From positions 1-62,720 of IMG/VR virus record IMGVR_UViG_3300037242_000251: DNA of 62,720 nucleotides; one strand, 5' to 3'. The position numbers and the translations under genes were made by a program. The notes under the pieces are model-generated. The model made no database searches. It was not told the origin of the DNA and saw only the letters and a program-made list of their open reading frames with translations. Source of the stretch: a virus. Its lineage: Duplodnaviria > Caudoviricetes. Positions 7,900-62,720 of the stretch are shown here, piece by piece (position 1 is the stretch's first letter; every line of letters starts with the position of its first letter).

Positions 7900-8153
7900 G
7901 CAGACCTCGTATCTACCGCTACGTCCGCGGCGGCGAGCCGCGCTTCGTCCCACTCCGGCCGGCGATCCGCATCAGCGACGACGATCTGACGGCGCTCAGG
8001 CTCGCGCACCCCGGCTCGACCGGCCACCCGCGCGGCCTGCCGAGACGCTGCGGCGTCAAGACCGGGCTGAGGGCGATCGCCGCGATCCTGGGATGCAGCG
8101 AGCACGTGGTGCGCTATCGGCTGCGAAAGATCGCCGAGCGGGAGGAATCATGA
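7896..8153 (+). CDS. Small basic protein with C-terminal HTH
   Basis: LRAIAAILGCSEHVVRYRL; ATGA-coupled at both ends. Confidence 0.6.
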   Translation: MSRPRIYRYVRGGEPRFVPLRPAIRISDDDLTALRLAHPGSTGHPRGLPRRCGVKTGLRAIAAILGCSEHVVRYRLRKIAEREES

Positions 8154-8629
8154 GCGAATGGGAGACAATCGGAAAATCCGACGACTGGCGCTCGCCGAAA
8201 TATATTTTTAACGCGATGAATGTCGTTTTCTGGCTCGACGTTGCCGGCATTCAAGGAACATTTGGTAACGTTCCGTGTCAGCACGCGCTGCTACAAGATA
8301 GTCTCGAAGCGGAATGGGGTGGCTTCGTCTGGATGAACCCACCGTTCGGCGGTCGCAACGCGATCCGGCCGTGGTTAGAGAAGTTCTTCGCTCACGGCAA
8401 CGGCGTGGCGCTCATGCCTGACCGCACGTCGGCGCCATGGTTCCAATGGGCGGCGCGACGCGCCGACGCGGTGCTGTTTCTGTCGCCGAAGGTGAAGTTT
8501 GAGCGACCCGACGGGACAATCGGTAAGTCGCCCGGCAGCGGCACGGCACTGATGGCGGCGGGATCGGAGGGTGTTCAAGCACTCGTCAACGCAAAGAAAC
8601 TCGGTTGGTTGGTGAAATCCTATGGCTGA
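8150..8629 (+). CDS. Phage Dam-like DNA N6-adenine methyltransferase
   Basis: DDW.SP, LDVA, VWMNPPF, DRTSAPWF motifs. Confidence 0.85.
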   Translation: MSEWETIGKSDDWRSPKYIFNAMNVVFWLDVAGIQGTFGNVPCQHALLQDSLEAEWGGFVWMNPPFGGRNAIRPWLEKFFAHGNGVALMPDRTSAPWFQWAARRADAVLFLSPKVKFERPDGTIGKSPGSGTALMAAGSEGVQALVNAKKLGWLVKSYG

Positions 8630-13942: not shown

Positions 13943-14279
13943 CGATACCTCCAAAGAGAGTAGCGGACCGACAGGCGCGAGCGGATTCGCTGACTGTCGC
14001 TTGATTGGTATTTTTTGTGGCTACGGTGGCATGGACGCCTGAACAATGGCTGAACCGCGTCCGCTCGTCTTGATATTTAAGACCTCCCGAGAAATTTTTA
14101 AGTGGGGGTGCGGCTTTTGCGGCACACCCTTTTTCAGATTTGGTAGGCCACTTCCGTCAATCTGACAACTCGGGTCGCCCCCGCTTGTTCCCAGCCTCTA
14201 TGCATAAAAATTCAGTTCGGCAAACTGAGACACTACCGATCTTCTTAGGCGACTTGCACCGAACACGATTCTATCACAA

Positions 14280-14393
14280 AGTAATGGCCCCGCCGGGGCA
14301 AACCGGCGGGGCCTGAAGGCTGCTGAGCGACCAGCGGCCGGGCGCCTGGGCGAGAGGCAATCCATGTCTACCACTGCTCGTGCTAGGGGTCAA
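14280..14393 (-). ncRNA. Candidate antisense RNA 1 with promoter (counter-transcribed to the MTase leader)
   Basis: Minus-strand TTGACC (14393-14388), N17, TG-n-TAGACA; ends at GC hairpin 14286-14313 plus U-rich tail. Confidence 0.55.
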
Positions 14394-14417
14394 CGACGCA
14401 CGCGAGCGGCGGTATGA
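14364..14417 (+). CDS. Leader peptide 1 MSTTARARGQRRTRAAV, coupled to the MTase
   Basis: GAGAGG SD; stop overlaps the MTase start (ATGA 14414-14417). Confidence 0.6.
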   Translation: MSTTARARGQRRTRAAV

Positions 14418-15382
14418 ACGCCCTTCCCTCGACATTGGCGCCCATCGTCGAGATATGGCAGGGCGACGCACTGCGTTGCCTCGAGCTGCTGCCGAGCGAT
14501 ACGTTTGATTGTGTCGTGACGTCGCCGCCCTATTGGGGGCTGCGCGATTATGGCGTCGAGGGCCAGATAGGCCTTGAGCCAACGATGGCGGCCTATCTCG
14601 CAACGATGATCGGCGTCTGTCGCGAGCTACGGCGCGTGCTCAAACCGAGCGGCACATTCTGGCTCAACATCGGCGATAGCTATTCAGGATCATGGGGCGC
14701 ACAGGGGCGACGAATCACCGAAAGCGACGACCCGTCTTGGCACGGATCGCAAATCAAGAATCATCCACGATTCGCTAGTGGGACAGGATCATCAAAGCGG
14801 AGCGGTCTGAAGCAAAAAGACCTCTGCATGATCCCCAACCGGCTTGCCATCGCGCTTCAAGACGACGGCTGGTGGGTACGCAGCGAGATCATCTGGGCAA
14901 AACCGAACCCGATGCCCGAGAGCGTTACTGATCGGCCGACATCATCACACGAGAAGATATGGCTGCTGGCGAAGAGCGAGCGCTACTATTTCGATGCGGC
15001 GGCGATTGCCGAGCCGTCCGTCGCCGACCACGGATCGGGCAACGGCTTCAAACGCGACGCGAGATTGAGCTACGCCGACGCGAGCGGAGCACGCGGCAGC
15101 GAAGAACAATGGACGGGAGTCAGCGGAACGCGCAACGCCCGCAATGTCTGGACGATCAGCACCAAACCCTTCAAAGGCGCCCATTTCGCGACTTTCCCGC
15201 CCGATCTCGCCGAACGCTGCATCAAAGCCGGCTGCCCACCAAGCGGACGCGTTCTCGACCCGTTCGGCGGCGCCGGAACAACCGGTCTGGTGGCGCAGCG
15301 TCTGGGTCGCAGTGCGCTGCTGATCGAACTGAACGAGGGCTACTGCGAAATGGTGCGTCGGCGCATCGAGGCGGCGCGATGA
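14414..15382 (+). CDS. Beta-class DNA N4-cytosine/N6-adenine methyltransferase
   Basis: TSPPY, HFATFP, VLDPFGGAGTT motifs. Confidence 0.92.
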   Translation: MNALPSTLAPIVEIWQGDALRCLELLPSDTFDCVVTSPPYWGLRDYGVEGQIGLEPTMAAYLATMIGVCRELRRVLKPSGTFWLNIGDSYSGSWGAQGRRITESDDPSWHGSQIKNHPRFASGTGSSKRSGLKQKDLCMIPNRLAIALQDDGWWVRSEIIWAKPNPMPESVTDRPTSSHEKIWLLAKSERYYFDAAAIAEPSVADHGSGNGFKRDARLSYADASGARGSEEQWTGVSGTRNARNVWTISTKPFKGAHFATFPPDLAERCIKAGCPPSGRVLDPFGGAGTTGLVAQRLGRSALLIELNEGYCEMVRRRIEAAR

Positions 15383-15414
15383 CGAGGGACTTTACAAGCC
15401 ACAAAATTGAGATC

Positions 15415-15538
15415 AGAAATGGAAACCCCCGATCCGCGGCGAGACGGACCGGGGGCTCGATTGCGGGCGCTGATAACGCCGGCGGAGCGCCTGTATGAGA
15501 GGCCCCTGATGAGTACCATCGCTAGCGCCTGCGGTCAA
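15415..15538 (-). ncRNA. Candidate antisense RNA 2 with promoter (counter-transcribed to the primase leader)
   Basis: Minus-strand TTGACC (15538-15533), N17, TG-n-TACTCA; ends in hairpin about 15423-15458 followed by CCAUUUCU. Confidence 0.6.
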
Positions 15539-15565
15539 TCTGACCTGCGAGCGATTGTCTCGTGA
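15509..15565 (+). CDS. Leader peptide 2 MSTIASACGQSDLRAIVS, coupled to the primase
   Basis: GAGAGG SD; stop overlaps the primase start (GTGA 15562-15565); paralogous to leader 1. Confidence 0.6.
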   Translation: MSTIASACGQSDLRAIVS

Positions 15566-17697
15566 ACGTTCAGCCAAAGATCAGCCCGTTCCAGCACCTG
15601 TGGTCGCTCGGCTACCGCAGGCTCATCCCGATCATCCCACCCAACGCCCCGGTCACGCCGACATGCGCCGTCGGCAAGAAGCTGGCGAAGGGTAAGGACA
15701 CCCGCGGCAAAACGCCGGGCAAGCGGCTGGCATCGGGCGAATGGACCTCAATCACCGACTGGCAGACGCTCGAGCCGACCGAGGCGGACCTGTCGGCGTG
15801 GGCCCAAATGGGCGCCAGCGTCGGCGTCAAATGCGGCCGCGGTGTCGTGGCGATCGACGCCGACTGTCTCAACCCTGAGCACGCCGCGCTGGTGCGCGCC
15901 GAGGTCGAAAAGTACGTCGGTCCGACGCCGGTGCGGATCGGCCGAGCCCCCAAGGCGCTTTATCTCTGCCGCAGCGAGGGCGACGTCTCGCTTGCCTACG
16001 CCAGCGTCAACTATGGCGACGGCGCCGAGAAGGTGGAGATCCTGAGCGGGCAATTCGTCGCCGAGGGCCTCCACCAGTCCGGAACGCCCTATCGCTGGGA
16101 GAGTGGCGTCTGGCCGTTCGATAAGCTGCCGATCGTCTCAACGCAGGCGCTGTCCGACCTGATCCGGTCGCTGGAGCGCCAGCTACCCAAAGCCAAGCGC
16201 AGCGTCGAGCTCTCGGCGCTGGCGCCGGTCGACCAGAAGTTGCTGGTGGGCAGCGTCGACATCATGCGCGAGGCCGTGCGGCTAACGCCGAACAGAGTGG
16301 AGCGGCGATCAAAGTACGTCGAGTTCGGCACGGCGTTGAGGGCGGCCCTGCCATTCAACGAAGACGCCGCTCACGAGATGTGGGTCGACTGGTGCGGGCG
16401 CTGGGAAGACGGCGAGAACGACGCCGAGACGATCGAAGTCGACTGGAAGTCGTTCAAACCGCCACACAGCATCGGCGCCAATTACATCTACGACATGGCG
16501 TTCACGGCGACCGAAGGCGCATTCCGCGGTCGCGCGCATGATCTGATGCGGCGCTTTCATGAGCGCCCAGCCGAAAGCGAAGCCGCCAAGTCGGAGTTGT
16601 TTGTCGTCAGCGCCGCCAGCCTGACCGGAGCCGAACCGCCGGCGCAGGCGTGGCTGGTGCGGGACCTTATTCCGACGCGCAACGTGACGATGCTGTCGGG
16701 CGACGGCGGGGCGGGCAAGAGCCTCCTGGCGCTGCAGCTAGCCGCCTCGGTTGCCGCCGGCGCCAACTGGCTCGGAATACCACTTGAGCGTGGGCGGGCC
16801 CTGTTCCTGACGGCCGAGGACGAGATCGAGGAGCTGCACAGGCGGCTGAGCGCGATCGTGCGCGGGACGGCAGCGTTCAAGATGGCGGACCTGACTGGGC
16901 TGAGCCTTGTTTCGCTCGACGGACAGGACGCCGTGATCGCAGCGCCGTCAGGCAAGGACGGGTTGCTGAAGCCGACCGAGATGATGACGCGAGTTCGCCA
17001 GACCGTGAAGCGGCTGGCGCCGACGCTGGTGGTTCTGGACACGCTGGCGGATTTATTCGGCGGCGATGAGATCAAGCGCGTCCATGCGCGCCAGTTCATC
17101 GGAATGCTTAAGGGGCTGTGCAACGAGTTTGGGACGACCGTGCTGCTGCCGGCGCACCCATCTCTGAGCGGCATGAGCAGCGGCTCGGGGATGTCGGGCA
17201 ACACGGCATGGAACAACTCGGTACGGTCGCGGCTGTACCTCGAGCGTCGTTTCGGAAAGTCAGAACAGGATGAGCCCGATCCTGATGTTAGAGTGCTGAC
17301 GACGAAGAAGGCGAACCGGGCCCGCCGCGGCGTGCGCTACGTGCTGCGGTGGTCAGCGGGGCGCTTCGTGCGCGAAGGCGTGGAGGTGGAATCGCGAGAG
17401 GCGGATCAGGAACGCGAAATCGAGTCGATATTCATGCGGGTGTTCGATGAGACAATCGACAGCGGGCGCACTTTATCGCACCTCGTTACAGCGCCGAACT
17501 ACGCTCCGAAAGTCGCCGAGGCGCACGCGATCGCCGGCGGCGTGAACCAGGCTCGCTTCACTGAGGCGATGGAGCGCCTGTTCGCTCGTCGCGCGATTGA
17601 GGTCAAGGAGGTCGGACCACCGTCTCGGGTCCGCAGGACGGTGGTTAGAACAAAACGTATCGTTGAAGATAGCGAGGAGAATGACCTATTCGGATGA
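15562..17697 (+). CDS. Primase-polymerase fused to RepA-like (AAA_25) helicase
   Basis: N-terminal bifunctional prim-pol (GKTPG, VAIDAD, QFVAEG.H), PriCT-like middle, GDGGAGKS, LVVLDTL, SGNTAW. Confidence 0.9.
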   Translation: MNVQPKISPFQHLWSLGYRRLIPIIPPNAPVTPTCAVGKKLAKGKDTRGKTPGKRLASGEWTSITDWQTLEPTEADLSAWAQMGASVGVKCGRGVVAIDADCLNPEHAALVRAEVEKYVGPTPVRIGRAPKALYLCRSEGDVSLAYASVNYGDGAEKVEILSGQFVAEGLHQSGTPYRWESGVWPFDKLPIVSTQALSDLIRSLERQLPKAKRSVELSALAPVDQKLLVGSVDIMREAVRLTPNRVERRSKYVEFGTALRAALPFNEDAAHEMWVDWCGRWEDGENDAETIEVDWKSFKPPHSIGANYIYDMAFTATEGAFRGRAHDLMRRFHERPAESEAAKSELFVVSAASLTGAEPPAQAWLVRDLIPTRNVTMLSGDGGAGKSLLALQLAASVAAGANWLGIPLERGRALFLTAEDEIEELHRRLSAIVRGTAAFKMADLTGLSLVSLDGQDAVIAAPSGKDGLLKPTEMMTRVRQTVKRLAPTLVVLDTLADLFGGDEIKRVHARQFIGMLKGLCNEFGTTVLLPAHPSLSGMSSGSGMSGNTAWNNSVRSRLYLERRFGKSEQDEPDPDVRVLTTKKANRARRGVRYVLRWSAGRFVREGVEVESREADQEREIESIFMRVFDETIDSGRTLSHLVTAPNYAPKVAEAHAIAGGVNQARFTEAMERLFARRAIEVKEVGPPSRVRRTVVRTKRIVEDSEENDLFG

Positions 17698-20664: not shown

Positions 20665-21119
20665 CAGGCTGTTCGATCTCGGCCGGTTAGCCGAGCCGCT
20701 TTTTTCATCAAGAATCGCGTCCGAACCACCTTCCAGACGTCGCGATTGATCGCCGACCTAGCGCGGCCACTTTCGATCGCTTATGCTTTAAACCTTTGAT
20801 ATACCTTGTGTTTCAACGAGCGAGCACTTGAAATCCGATCCGGCGCTGCAGCTCGCCAGGCCGGGGCGCCGGCTCGCCGGGACTGCTTTTCGCGTTAAAA
20901 CGTTGTTTTTGTTAGAGAATTGGACACCGGCCCCGGCATGGTTTCGAGTGCCCCATCTCGCACCACCCCCCAAAAGTTCCTCCGCACAGGCGTACAATCT
21001 GTTATAGAAATCAGATACTTATACGAATTGTTACTGCGCCGGACCGCCATAACCGATTGTTATTGACGCGCGCGTCGGGCCGCCACATGCTCAACAGATT
21101 GAAAAGAGGAGCAAATCCA

Positions 21120-21803
21120 ATGCAGGCAGTCGCTTATCTCCGCGTCAGCACCGGACGCCAGGGTCGCAGCGGGCTCGGCATCGAGGGCCAGCGTGAGTTG
21201 ATCCGGGTCTTTGCTGCGGCAAATAACGTCGAAATTGTCGCCGAATTCGTCGAGATTCAGACCGGAAAGGGTGTAGACGCCTTCAATCGCCGGCCTCATT
21301 TGGCTGCGGCGTTTGCCGAGGCTCGCAAGCGCAAGTGCGCGGTGTTGGTCGCCAGACTCGACCGTCTCAGCCGCAACGCCGCTTTCGTCGCGGCGCTGAT
21401 GGAGCGCAAGGTGCCGTTCTTTGTCGCCGAGCTCGGGCTCGACGTTGATCCGTTCATGCTGCACATCTACGCGGCGGTGGCCGAGAAGGAGCGTCGGATG
21501 ATCGGTGCCCGCGTCAAGTCGGCGCTGGCGGCGGCGAAGGCGCGCGGCGTCACCAGGGCCGGCAAACCGTTTCGCGTCGGCAATCCGCGTATCATGGAGG
21601 CCCACGGCAAGGCGCTCGCCGCAGTCCGTCTTGAGGCCGATCGCTTCGCCGCCAATGTCGCGCCACTGATCCGGCCGCTGCGTGATCAGGGCCTCACGCT
21701 GCGCGAGATCGCTGGCGCGCTCGATGCGCGTGGCGTCGCTACCGCCAGGGGCGCTCCGTGGTCGCCCACCACCGTCTCGGCCGCTCTGCGCCGGGCCGCT
21801 TGA
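21120..21803 (+). CDS. Serine recombinase (resolvase family) with C-terminal DNA-binding domain
   Basis: YLRVST catalytic motif, LDRLSR, E..ER..I..R; GAGGAG SD. Confidence 0.92.
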
Positions 21804-34128: not shown

Positions 34129-34142
34129 CAAGGAGTGCTGTG

Positions 34143-35213
34143 ATGGCCTATCCGAATTCTCCGGTTTCGACGCTAACCGGCTCAGGAATCACGCCTTCTG
34201 GGCAACTTGGGGCGCAGTTGGCCGCCCTGACGCGCCGTGCCTTTTTGAGCACTTGCTACGTCCAAATCTATCAGAGCCACCCCCTTCTTTCACTTTTCAT
34301 GTCGAACAGCAAAGCAGCGCGCGGCGGCGTCTCGCAGATCACCGTTCCGGTGCAGGGCAACAGCTTCGTCCAGTTCTCGTGGGGCGGCTTTGACGGCAAC
34401 TTCCCGATGCCGACCGATCAGGCGGCGATCCAGAACGCGCAGTTCAGTCTCAAGCTCGGCATGGTGCCGATTGGCTTTTTCGGGATGGAGGCCATCCTGC
34501 AAAGCTCCGAGGTTGTCATTCCCAAGCTGCGCGCCGTGATGAGCGACGCCGCGGTGGTGATGAAGCAGTCCTATGCGCAGGCGCTCTATTCGAACAACTA
34601 CGCCAACACGCAGATTTGGGATTCGCTCAGCCAGGCTTTCGACGACGGCACCAACGTCCCGTCTTACGGCGGCATCGCGCGCTCGCCCGGCTCGTTCTGG
34701 GCCGGCCAGCTGATCAGCAACACCGGCGCCGCAGTGACGACGAGGGTCGGCGCGGCGCAGATTCTGACGCGCATCCAGTCCGGCGCTGGCGGCGAGGCGC
34801 CCGATTTCGGTGTGATGAACCCGGCCAACTGGGCCGAGCTCATGACCGACTTCATGAGCCTCGAGATGTACCAGACCCGGCCGCGCTCGATCTACGAGAA
34901 GGACGATGTGGTCAACGCCGGCTTCCGCGGCATCAAGGTGCTCGACACGCCGATCTTCCCCGATCCGTTCTGTCCGCTCGGCTCGGCCTACTTTCTCAAC
35001 AGCCGCTACACCGGCATGTACATGTCCGAATACGCGCCGATGACCTTCTCCGGCTTCGAGCCGCTGATCAACGTCGGCCAGATCGCTGACGTCGGCGTTC
35101 TCATCTCGTGCGCCGATCTCGTCTGCGCCAAACCGTCCTCGGGCGCTCAGGTGACGGGCATCACCGGCGCGGCGTGGCAGTCTGTTCCGGGCACTTCGCC
35201 CGCCGTGATCTGA
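34143..35213 (+). CDS. Major capsid protein
   Basis: 356 aa, AAGGAG SD; GG..I.VP, YGGI.R, AGF.GI, D..CP...YFLN pattern of HK97-fold capsids. Confidence 0.8.
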   Translation: MAYPNSPVSTLTGSGITPSGQLGAQLAALTRRAFLSTCYVQIYQSHPLLSLFMSNSKAARGGVSQITVPVQGNSFVQFSWGGFDGNFPMPTDQAAIQNAQFSLKLGMVPIGFFGMEAILQSSEVVIPKLRAVMSDAAVVMKQSYAQALYSNNYANTQIWDSLSQAFDDGTNVPSYGGIARSPGSFWAGQLISNTGAAVTTRVGAAQILTRIQSGAGGEAPDFGVMNPANWAELMTDFMSLEMYQTRPRSIYEKDDVVNAGFRGIKVLDTPIFPDPFCPLGSAYFLNSRYTGMYMSEYAPMTFSGFEPLINVGQIADVGVLISCADLVCAKPSSGAQVTGITGAAWQSVPGTSPAVI

Positions 35214-60548: not shown

Positions 60549-60857
60549 TCAATCCCTTCTTGCACGGATCGTGGCAGCACATTCCCGCGCTTTAAGTTGA
60601 CTGTCTGATCCGTTAAGGCAATCAGCAGCTAGTTTGTCGCACACTACAGCACATGCCTCCCGTTCCTTCTCCACCGCCTCTGCAACAGAGGGGGATTCGG
60701 CGTATCGGCGATTGAGCGCGTCAACGATGTATTCGGCGATATGCCACTCGCAGACAGCGATATTGACGCCCTCGTGGGTTCCGTTCTCAATCACAGCCTG
60801 ACCATCGTCCAACGGACGGCTGCGGATGAACCAAGGCAGGTGCGGAATCTCACTCAT
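60549..60857 (-). CDS. Mosaic accessory protein (MSEI…AESPS…EREACA…IRAR)
   Basis: 102 aa, AAGGAG SD in repeated joint. Confidence 0.7.
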   Translation of the reverse strand: MSEIPHLPWFIRSRPLDDGQAVIENGTHEGVNIAVCEWHIAEYIVDALNRRYAESPSVAEAVEKEREACAVVCDKLAADCLNGSDSQLKARECAATIRARRD

Positions 60858-61437
60858 CGCGGGGCTCCTTTGGTGGGGTGGGGACTGCGCCCCATTGATC
60901 AGCCATCGCGGCGGCGATACCTGTCAACGTTCGGCTTCGTTCTTTCCAACGATCGGGACCAGGTGATTCGTAATGCACGCGCGGTTCACGCCCCGATACA
61001 ATCTTGGTCGGCTTGAGCGGCGGCAGATTTTTCAGCCAGAGACAGGTCGCCTTTGTCTCGCCGTGGCCGAACTGCCACGGCTGGATGATCTGGTCCGGCT
61101 TGCGGATGCGACTCGATATAATCGAGATCGGATTTTCGAGCGCGATGCATGGTATATCCGCATCAAGAAGTTCCCGAACGAACAGCAAAGCTTCTTTCTG
61201 CTCAGCAACCTTATCCTTAAACCAGCGCGCGCCGCTGACGGCCAAATGGGTGCAAGGAGGATGAGCAATCAGCAAATCCCAATCACCAAAACTCAAGCAT
61301 CCTCGAACGTCGTTTTGATAGTGGTGCGGTGAGCTATCTTCCGCCGGCAAAAGATCGCAGGACCACGCATCATGCCCGCGATCACGGAAAGCGCGGCGCA
61401 CGCCCCCCGAAAATTCGCAGGCGACCAACACCCTCAT
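60850..61437 (-). CDS. Short C5-cytosine methyltransferase-like protein
   Basis: VLVACEFSG, DLL, HPPC, ENP, K.TCLW motifs. Confidence 0.8.
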   Translation of the reverse strand: MRVLVACEFSGGVRRAFRDRGHDAWSCDLLPAEDSSPHHYQNDVRGCLSFGDWDLLIAHPPCTHLAVSGARWFKDKVAEQKEALLFVRELLDADIPCIALENPISIISSRIRKPDQIIQPWQFGHGETKATCLWLKNLPPLKPTKIVSGREPRVHYESPGPDRWKERSRTLTGIAAAMADQWGAVPTPPKEPRDE

Positions 61438-62368: not shown

Positions 62369-62720
62369 TGGGGTTCTCCTTGGCGCGCAGGGCGGAACGG
62401 GCGCGGCGAAGGTCGCCAACCCGAATATGTGGGGCCTCGTTGTGCTGCATCATCGGTCGAAACATGTCGCGGTCAGACTCATCAGAGCCCACGTCACGTT
62501 CTGCCTTGATAGCAAACGGCTCCAGCGCCGCCCGCAACTCCGCGATCGCCTTCGTCTGGGCGTCGAAGGCGTCGAGCAACACGCCGATGCGGTCGGGGGA
62601 GCAGCGGGCGATGTGAAGTAAATTGGCCGCTGCCTCAGCCTTTGGCGGGCAGTCGTTTGCTCCGTCTTCGATTTGATCTAGACCGTTATTGACGTAGACT
62701 TGGCCGATTGCCCCCATATG
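62361..62720 (-). CDS. 3' part of the Ead/Ea22-like protein (starts at 305)
   Basis: Continuous frame across the terminal overlap, 180 aa in total. Confidence 0.7.
   Translation of the reverse strand, partial: HMGAIGQVYVNNGLDQIEDGANDCPPKAEAAANLLHIARCSPDRIGVLLDAFDAQTKAIAELRAALEPFAIKAERDVGSDESDRDMFRPMMQHNEAPHIRVGDLRRARSALRAKENPNG
62599..62720. repeat. Terminal direct repeat (copy 2), circular assembly overlap
   Basis: Identical to 1-122; implied unit genome 62,598 bp. Confidence 0.95.

Follow-up and report, generated by a model that had tools for sequence, protein, structure and literature searches.

Two copies of a candidate antisense-RNA and coupled-leader cassette precede a DNA methylase gene and a primase-helicase gene in a phage genome

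The 62,720-bp virus record IMGVR_UViG_3300037242_000251 from IMG/VR (hereafter the window, meaning the whole of this stretch of DNA) carries two copies, A and B, of a control cassette of ~165 bp. Copy A lies ahead of a DNA methyltransferase (MTase) gene and copy B ahead of a primase-helicase gene. Each cassette probably acts as a convergent unit that makes the output of the downstream gene depend on a cis-encoded antisense RNA. The elements of the cassettes, their conservation, their spacing and the covariation of their paired bases can be read directly in the DNA; from these we infer that both promoters fire, that translation of the downstream gene is coupled to that of a leader, and that the antisense RNA represses it. 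A preliminary description of this DNA had proposed plasmid-style antisense control of the primase and the MTase, and the comparative evidence laid out below supports that proposal, with transcript, coupling and repression as its predicted steps.

In the mechanism we propose, a sense promoter would produce an mRNA whose 5' untranslated region (UTR) contains a single good ribosome-binding site, belonging to a leader open reading frame (ORF) of 15-28 codons. The MTase and the primase-helicase, with little or no Shine-Dalgarno (SD) sequence of their own, would be translated by ribosomes terminating at the overlapping leader TGA (coupled re-initiation). A promoter on the minus strand, within the leader ORF, would give rise to an RNA of ~79-97 nt ending at a rho-independent terminator. 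The 5' stem-loop of this antisense RNA is complementary to the leader SD, and their pairing would block translation of the leader and hence synthesis of the coupled protein. With antisense RNA produced from every genome copy, the outcome would be a dosage-dependent negative feedback on the replication initiator, in which output per template falls as copies rise.

Layout of the two cassettes

The regions upstream of the MTase and the primase share a common layout (Table 1), and every element listed for them in the preliminary description lies where it was placed, base for base. The leader stop codons overlap the main start codons in both regions (ATGA at the MTase, GTGA at the primase). The motif GCGCCTG-N3-GAGAGGC, which carries the SD in both, occurs without mismatches only at 14342-14358 and 15487-15503 in the window; with two mismatches or fewer there are 4 matches against 1.92 expected, a number reached by 15 of 100 shuffles, and the count of this motif by itself is not significant. 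The minus-strand promoter inside both leaders, first described as TTGACC-N17-TAnnCA with a TGn extension, is likewise exact: the pattern TTGACC-N14-TGGTAnnCA matches only at 14393-14365 and 15538-15510 (0.25 expected; 2 of 100 shuffles reach two), with no third site in the window even when 2 mismatches are allowed. The two leaders align in blocks.

Both predicted antisense RNAs fold alike into three stem-loops (SL1 to SL3). SL1 is a 4-bp GCCU/AGGC stem whose 7-nt loop holds the anti-SD, SL2 is a bulged stem, and SL3 is the terminator. The computed lengths are 85 and 91 nt, assuming unmapped 5' ends 6 nt past the -10 hexamer; the preliminary description gave roughly 75-90 nt. Each RNA has the GCCU/AGGC stem at its 5' end and the hairpin with a U-rich tail at the other. 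The G+C hairpins at 14286-14313 and 15423-15458 are followed by T-rich tails on the minus strand only, and a terminator scan of that strand finds 14313-14286 (11 G-C pairs, tail ATTACTTTGT) and 15444-15427/15435-15410; the arrangement of a rho-independent terminator, a G+C-rich stem and then a U-run on the transcribed strand, is present. The region of antisense RNA A gives a covariance model (CM) match of 136 bits. The SD of leader A forms a duplex of -5.1 kcal/mol with the anti-SD, versus -2.3 for the MTase's own upstream region.

Table 1. Features of the two cassettes and the genes they precede, in window coordinates
Feature	Position	Strand	Remarks
Cassette A sense -35-like hexamer TTGCAC	14254..14259	+	putative promoter function
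Predicted antisense RNA A, ~85 nt	14275..14359	-	fold -44.8 kcal/mol, z -2.7
Parts of antisense RNA A	SL1 14358-14344; SL2 14339-14318; SL3 terminator 14313-14286; U-rich tail 14285-14276	-	anti-SD in SL1 loop
Leader A Shine-Dalgarno GAGAGG	14352..14357	+	6 nt ahead of leader ATG
Leader ORF A, 17 aa, MSTTARARGQRRTRAAV	14364..14417	+	TGA overlaps MTase ATG at 14414 (ATGA)
Candidate antisense promoter A	14365..14393	-	-35 TTGACC 14393-14388; 17-nt spacer ending TGG; -10 TAGACA 14370-14365
Cassette B sense -35-like hexamer TTTACA	15391..15396	+	putative function
Predicted antisense RNA B, ~91 nt	15414..15504	-	fold -43.5 kcal/mol, z -3.6
Parts of antisense RNA B	SL1 15503-15489; SL2 15483-15463; SL3 terminator 15458-15423; U-rich tail 15422-15412	-	
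Leader B Shine-Dalgarno GAGAGG	15497..15502	+	
Leader ORF B, 18 aa, MSTIASACGQSDLRAIVS	15509..15565	+	TGA overlaps primase GTG at 15562 (GTGA)
Candidate antisense promoter B	15510..15538	-	-35 TTGACC 15538-15533; 17-nt spacer ending TGG; -10 TACTCA 15515-15510
DNA methyltransferase (MTase), 322 aa	14414..15382	+	PF01555 N6_N4_Mtase, E 2.4e-48
Primase-helicase, 711 aa	15562..17697	+	Prim-Pol, PriCT-2 and AAA_25 domains

Cassettes in relatives

A protein search returned ~30 full-length relatives of the primase at 36-79% identity. The DNA compared comes from IMG/VR, JGI metagenomes and GTDB genomes, and ~20 relatives recorded in ENA/Logan only fall outside the comparison. Eleven cassettes are found, spread over 8 elements; the primases of these share 40-100% identity with that of the window, and every examined relative with at least 40% primase identity and upstream DNA present has one. 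Besides copies A and B of the window, they comprise two in L006 (primase 80% identical), with copy A preceding an MTase and copy B the primase; two in L005 (56%), where A and B stand in tandem with no gene in between; one each in L002 and L007 (both 55%), from which the MTase is absent; and one each in L009 (44%), in L164, a Rhizobiales metagenome-assembled genome (43%), and in L145 (40%). The contig of L004 (72%) ends before the upstream region, and L085 (37%) has upstream DNA without a cassette.

A CM built from the five type-A copies alone (R1) recovers the type-B copies at 44-53.5 bits (E 1e-10 to 1e-13), with antisense RNA B of the window scoring 44 bits (E 4e-10). The more distant single copies score 26 bits in L164 (E 4e-5), 18.4 bits in L009 (E 0.006) and 13.4 bits in L145 (E 0.15). 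Each recovered match lies directly 5' of a primase gene in the same orientation, and the model finds no further convincing match in the rest of the window.

Of the further matches given by wider searches, those inspected were rejected apart from L164. On 233 further loci around helicase-only relatives, CM R1 gives 6 matches with E up to 1. L164 is real; L147, L023 and L176 are only terminator-like, L017 is G+C-rich sequence in which the cassette elements are absent, and the sixth, L173, lies outside the inspected set. A further model (R2) run on 151 genomes of the order to which genome G001 belongs matches in 16 genomes with E up to 0.01. The inspected matches (14 of the 18 outside G001, together with L245, and excluding the partial matches L251, L253, L254 and L258) do not combine TAnnCA with an anti-SD and are terminator hairpins. 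An exact-pattern scan of IMG/VR returns the L002 contig as its sole match, a blastn search of INPHARED phage records yields distant MTase matches only and no close relative, and a loose regular-expression match, L153, lacks the remaining cassette parts.

Conserved bases of the candidate antisense promoter and the leader

Every one of the 11 leader ORFs contains TTGA(C/T)(C/G)-N17-TAnnCA on its minus strand, always with a spacer of exactly 17 nt. The candidate promoter (11/11) and the stop/start overlap (10/10) are both retained among relatives down to 40% primase identity. The preliminary description held that the functional elements are conserved and the spacers diverged, and the 11 cassettes from 8 elements bear this out: in pairwise comparison, spacers are identical at 5-11 of 17 positions versus 4-6 of 6 for each hexamer. 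The -35 hexamer matches the consensus at five of six positions.

Within the first 33 nt of the leader (n=11), only a few positions never vary: the start codon's TG, +6/+7 (TA), +10 (A) and +28 to +31 (TCAA). Read on the minus strand, the TG corresponds to positions 5-6 of the -10 hexamer, the TA to its positions 1-2, the A to the T of TGn, and the TCAA to the TTGA of the -35 hexamer. The leader peptides begin MST, MGT, MSN, MHT, MFK or MPR: codon 2 specifies S, G, H, P or F and always ends in T, and codon 3 specifies T, N, R or K and always has A first. Residue 10 is Gln, encoded by CAA in every cassette despite a genome of 63% G+C. Because the encoded residues vary while the promoter-hexamer bases stay fixed, the conserved bases of the leader appear to be constrained as DNA, which is what a promoter would need, and not as peptide.

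Past Gln10 the leaders diverge to lengths of 15, 17, 18, 24 and 26 codons, with 28 in L005A, where no gene follows. The frame is kept throughout, the leader TGA lying over the main ATG or GTG in all ten cassettes that have a next gene. The peptides are short, hydrophilic and rich in Arg, Ser and Thr. In all 11 cassettes the leader SD/anti-SD duplex is -5.1 kcal/mol or better, and in 9 of 10 the duplex formed by the region ahead of the main gene is weaker than that of its own leader, L009 being the exception. Coding frames on the minus strand are not kept, and a coding role for that strand was rejected; the frames are disrupted by stops in L005B and by indels between window A and L006A.

Predicted RNA structure, covariation and strand

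Predicted antisense RNAs span ~79-97 nt across the cassettes, and the three stem-loops fold in 10 of 11, the first two stems being ambiguous in L145. The most conserved part of the RNA is the 5' anti-SD stem-loop. The preliminary description had pointed to an alignment of the two leaders with homologous primase leaders as the place to look for covariation, and such an alignment (A6, 10 cassettes) contains it. Pairing holds in 95.9% of the cells of A6, and compensatory changes on both sides are seen in 13 of its 23 pairs, counts inflated by the fitting of A6 to the model structure; none of 500 shuffles reaches the observed values, and slid partners give at most 5 such pairs. SL2 of window A and B is identical at only 10 of 23 positions, yet both copies make the same bulged stem.

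Hairpins of this kind can form from either strand, and it is the terminator that sets the two strands apart. All 11 cassettes have a T-rich tail after the stem, and they have it only on the minus strand. On this strand the terminator stem is unbroken for at least 11 bp from its base in all 11, kept continuous by G-U wobble pairs, whereas the plus-strand version is interrupted in 6. Because tail and unbroken stem are both minus-strand features, they give the direction of the transcription unit.

These strand-specific features bear on an unlikely alternative in which the sense side alone is functional, a structured 5' leader and a coupled upstream ORF setting the translation rate, with the minus-strand signals as by-products. 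The hairpins fold about equally on the plus strand, the sense RNA being the more stable in 5 of 11; the -10 hexamer is poor by the E. coli consensus; and the leader SD, frame and stop/start overlap are conserved independently. Such a leader would leave unexplained the invariance of TCAA, of TA and of the exact 17-nt spacing against changing residues. Nor would it explain why, in a 63% G+C genome, all 11 cassettes have T-rich tracts after the minus-strand hairpin, or why the terminator stem is held together by G-U pairs on that strand and broken on the other (6/11).

Several observations weigh against antisense control by the cassettes. None of the sequencing runs listed with this DNA is RNA. 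The -10 hexamers match only 3 of 6 positions of TATAAT, the E. coli consensus, and lack the T at position 6; as this T is missing from both TAGACA and TACTCA, neither candidate antisense promoter is picked up by a scan for consensus promoters. The TGn extension is present in 9 of 11 cassettes and not in all. In L009, the main gene has a good SD of its own (-6.6 kcal/mol). When both strands are folded, the test of strand is neutral: whole RNAs fold better as antisense in 6 of 11 cassettes and as sense in 5, with 24 versus 20 G-U pairs. The hairpin proposed to mask the main start is weak: some pairing of this start is predicted in 9 of 10 cassettes, with z below -2 in only 3 of 10 and with differing partners. 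Finally, the fitting of A6 belongs on this side, and the 11 cassettes amount to ~5 independent lineages.

A hairpin between the first leader codons and the main start region occurs in the type-A copies and in window B; it is not uniform and its z is weak. Masking of the main start by such a hairpin was set aside as weak and not uniform.

Candidate facing promoters and the possible action of the antisense RNA

In 10 of 10 cassettes with upstream sequence, a CTTGAC-like hexamer stands 26-29 nt ahead of the hairpin. The accompanying -10-like stretch is weak and A-rich (TAGAAT in L009, TAAAAG in L002 and L005A, CAGAAA in type B). The same stretch is also the complement of the antisense U-tail, which makes for a very compact convergent unit. 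If the CTTGAC-like site is the sense promoter, the mRNA would start at the hairpin and the antisense RNA would complement the entire 5' UTR.

A small RNA that is made yet acts in another way, through transcriptional interference between the convergent promoters, through cleavage of the duplex by RNase III, or by acting in trans or as a primer, seems quite improbable. The candidate promoters do face each other at a distance of ~110-135 bp, and the whole RNA complements the 5' UTR. Antisense RNA A can also pair across the SD of mRNA B, at a modelled -35 kcal/mol; cognate pairs give -50 to -56 and shuffles about -20. SL1 (14344-14358 in A, 15489-15503 in B) has identical stems in the two copies and different loops, CUCGCCC in A versus CUCAUAC in B; cross-talk between the MTase and primase cassettes would be possible on these modelled energies. 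That the 5' anti-SD stem-loop is the best conserved part and that the coupled main genes are SD-less points instead to translation as the target. These other actions and a block of the SD are not mutually exclusive.

Duplication around the methylase gene

The cassette is older than its duplication, as the single copies in L009, L164 and L145 show. A DNA contig from run X3 (246 nt, depth 54) joins position 14420 of the window to 15598 with 32 other letters between. This contig corresponds to a near-identical phage variant without the MTase and cassette B, in which leader A would be coupled to the primase directly. L002 and L007 have the same single-cassette form, and the MTase and cassette B behave, by these comparisons, as one unit that comes and goes. 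In L005 (2181-2502), with A and B in tandem, leader A extends over 28 codons into the promoter region of cassette B. L006 (147-902) has a different MTase of 251 aa in the slot between both cassettes, which shares only its N- and C-terminal ends with the 322-aa enzyme of the window. It begins MNVQP like the primase, and the duplication would therefore have included the first primase codons.

That the second copy is only a recombination scar, left where the MTase was inserted with a duplicated piece from upstream of the primase and devoid of a regulatory role, is very hard to credit. The indel seen in the X3 contig, the single cassettes without MTase in L002 and L007, and the tandem of L005 with no MTase between would all fit a scar. 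Against it, both copies retain every functional element in the window, L006 and L005 despite their mutual divergence, SL2 still pairs at 10 of 23 identical positions in window A and B, and the single cassettes of L009, L164 and L145 show the element to predate the duplication. Least probable of all is that a protein, either a repressor or the initiator, binds the hexamers and that they form no promoter. Short invariant blocks at fixed spacing would also suit an operator; against this, the two blocks are neither repeats nor palindromes of each other, fit a -35/17 nt/-10 arrangement with an upstream TG, and are followed 79-97 nt on by a terminator.

Beyond antisense control of the individual genes, a broader reading is possible, though doubtful: the cassette may be a portable dosage-sensing module, a plasmid-style copy control of the initiator that was duplicated as a regulated slot for swapped methylases, with cross-pairing that would tie methylase output to primase output. 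If so, a phase of controlled genome copy number, such as a plasmid-like or carrier state, would be implied. The duplication around a variable methylase gene also suggests how an incoming gene can gain regulation, by copying a resident control element.

Genome and genes at the locus

The window, 62,720 bp long and 62.8% G+C, is a complete virus record. Its ends are identical 122-bp terminal repeats (1-122 and 62599-62720), which fits a circular or circularly permuted assembly. A major head protein gene lies at 34140-35213, and other large virion proteins are encoded. The replication genes (family-A DNA polymerase, helicase, exonuclease, Gp2.5-like single-stranded DNA-binding protein and RusA) form a T7-like set, and the locus lies between an SPFH-domain gene and the primase-helicase of this set.

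The solved structures nearest to the MTase at 14414-15382 are N6/N4 MTases. The C-terminal (helicase) half of the primase-helicase resembles the RSF1010 RepA helicase (1g8y, E 6.5e-13), and the genome-borne relatives of the primase are all alphaproteobacterial, mostly from Hyphomicrobiales and Rhodobacterales. The hosts of the phage are taken to be alphaproteobacteria of soil. Two other DNA methyltransferase genes are found in the window, at 8093-8629 and, on the minus strand, at 60850-61437 (phrog_111, phrog_757); a CM search of the whole window finds no cassette ahead of either. A serine recombinase gene (phrog_95 integrase / phrog_125 invertase) lies at 21057-21803.

Comparison with known systems

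IncFII, IncI and IncB plasmids are the textbook case of copy number controlled by an antisense RNA together with a coupled leader peptide. A search of the whole window against Rfam gives no match at the gathering score, and at 14200-15620 the Rfam matches are at chance level, the best being to an unrelated family (E 1.1). The preliminary description had called the cassette CopA/tap-like. By analogy, this term would hold as a description of its mode of action and not of family membership, which we deny because Rfam gives no match and the controlled genes are not plasmid Rep genes.

PMC5717011 and PMC8053102 describe R1 CopA as a cis-encoded antisense RNA from the repA mRNA leader that inhibits translation of tap, to which RepA is coupled. 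As in R1, the leader stop in the window overlaps the main start, the main gene is without a good SD, and the predicted RNA closes with a terminator hairpin of its own. Unlike R1 (IncFII), the cassettes precede a Prim-Pol/AAA_25 primase-helicase and a DNA MTase of a phage, without homology to IncFII RepA. Their candidate antisense promoter is placed within the leader ORF, and the predicted RNA, with three stem-loops, extends over the SD of the leader. The IncI2 repR-repA system, described as working in the same way as R1, has a 19-aa leader ORF overlapping the rep start codon (PMC8053102), and the same source gives an antisense RNA of ~70-108 nt from the leader region for IncI2 and IncI1/IncB (ColIb-P9 repY-repZ, pMU720 repB-repA). 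The window resembles both in its short leader overlapping the main start and its predicted antisense RNA from the leader region. It differs from these plasmids in replicon type, host group and sequence, and IncI1 and IncB depend on a pseudoknot to translate rep.

The repABC plasmids of alphaproteobacteria carry a small counter-transcript just upstream of the replication initiator gene, and we know of no coupled leader ORF in them. The host class is the same as for the window; the window differs in having no Rfam match to their counter-transcribed RNA and no repA, repB or repC context, its neighbours being an MTase and a primase-helicase. P22 sar and IS10 RNA-OUT are short antisense RNAs that span the ribosome-binding site of their target gene and are made from a promoter within its 5' end, while hok/mok/Sok has its main ORF coupled to an upstream ORF that the antisense RNA blocks. 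The targets of these three are an antirepressor, a transposase and a toxin, respectively. Unlike hok/mok/Sok, the window has no small hydrophobic toxin ORF downstream (the genes encode a 322-aa MTase and a 711-aa primase-helicase), and its leaders are not toxin-like.

A literature search of titles and the beginnings of abstracts returned no report of such control before a phage primase-helicase or a phage methylase. If our reading is correct, it adds an RNA family absent from Rfam, a compact 165-bp module with separable parts, and phages of Hyphomicrobiales-type hosts that meter their replication initiator by gene dosage. Our verdict, reached by analogy, is that the cassette would represent a new family of RNA, in a phage, whose mode of action resembles that of R1 CopA/tap-repA.

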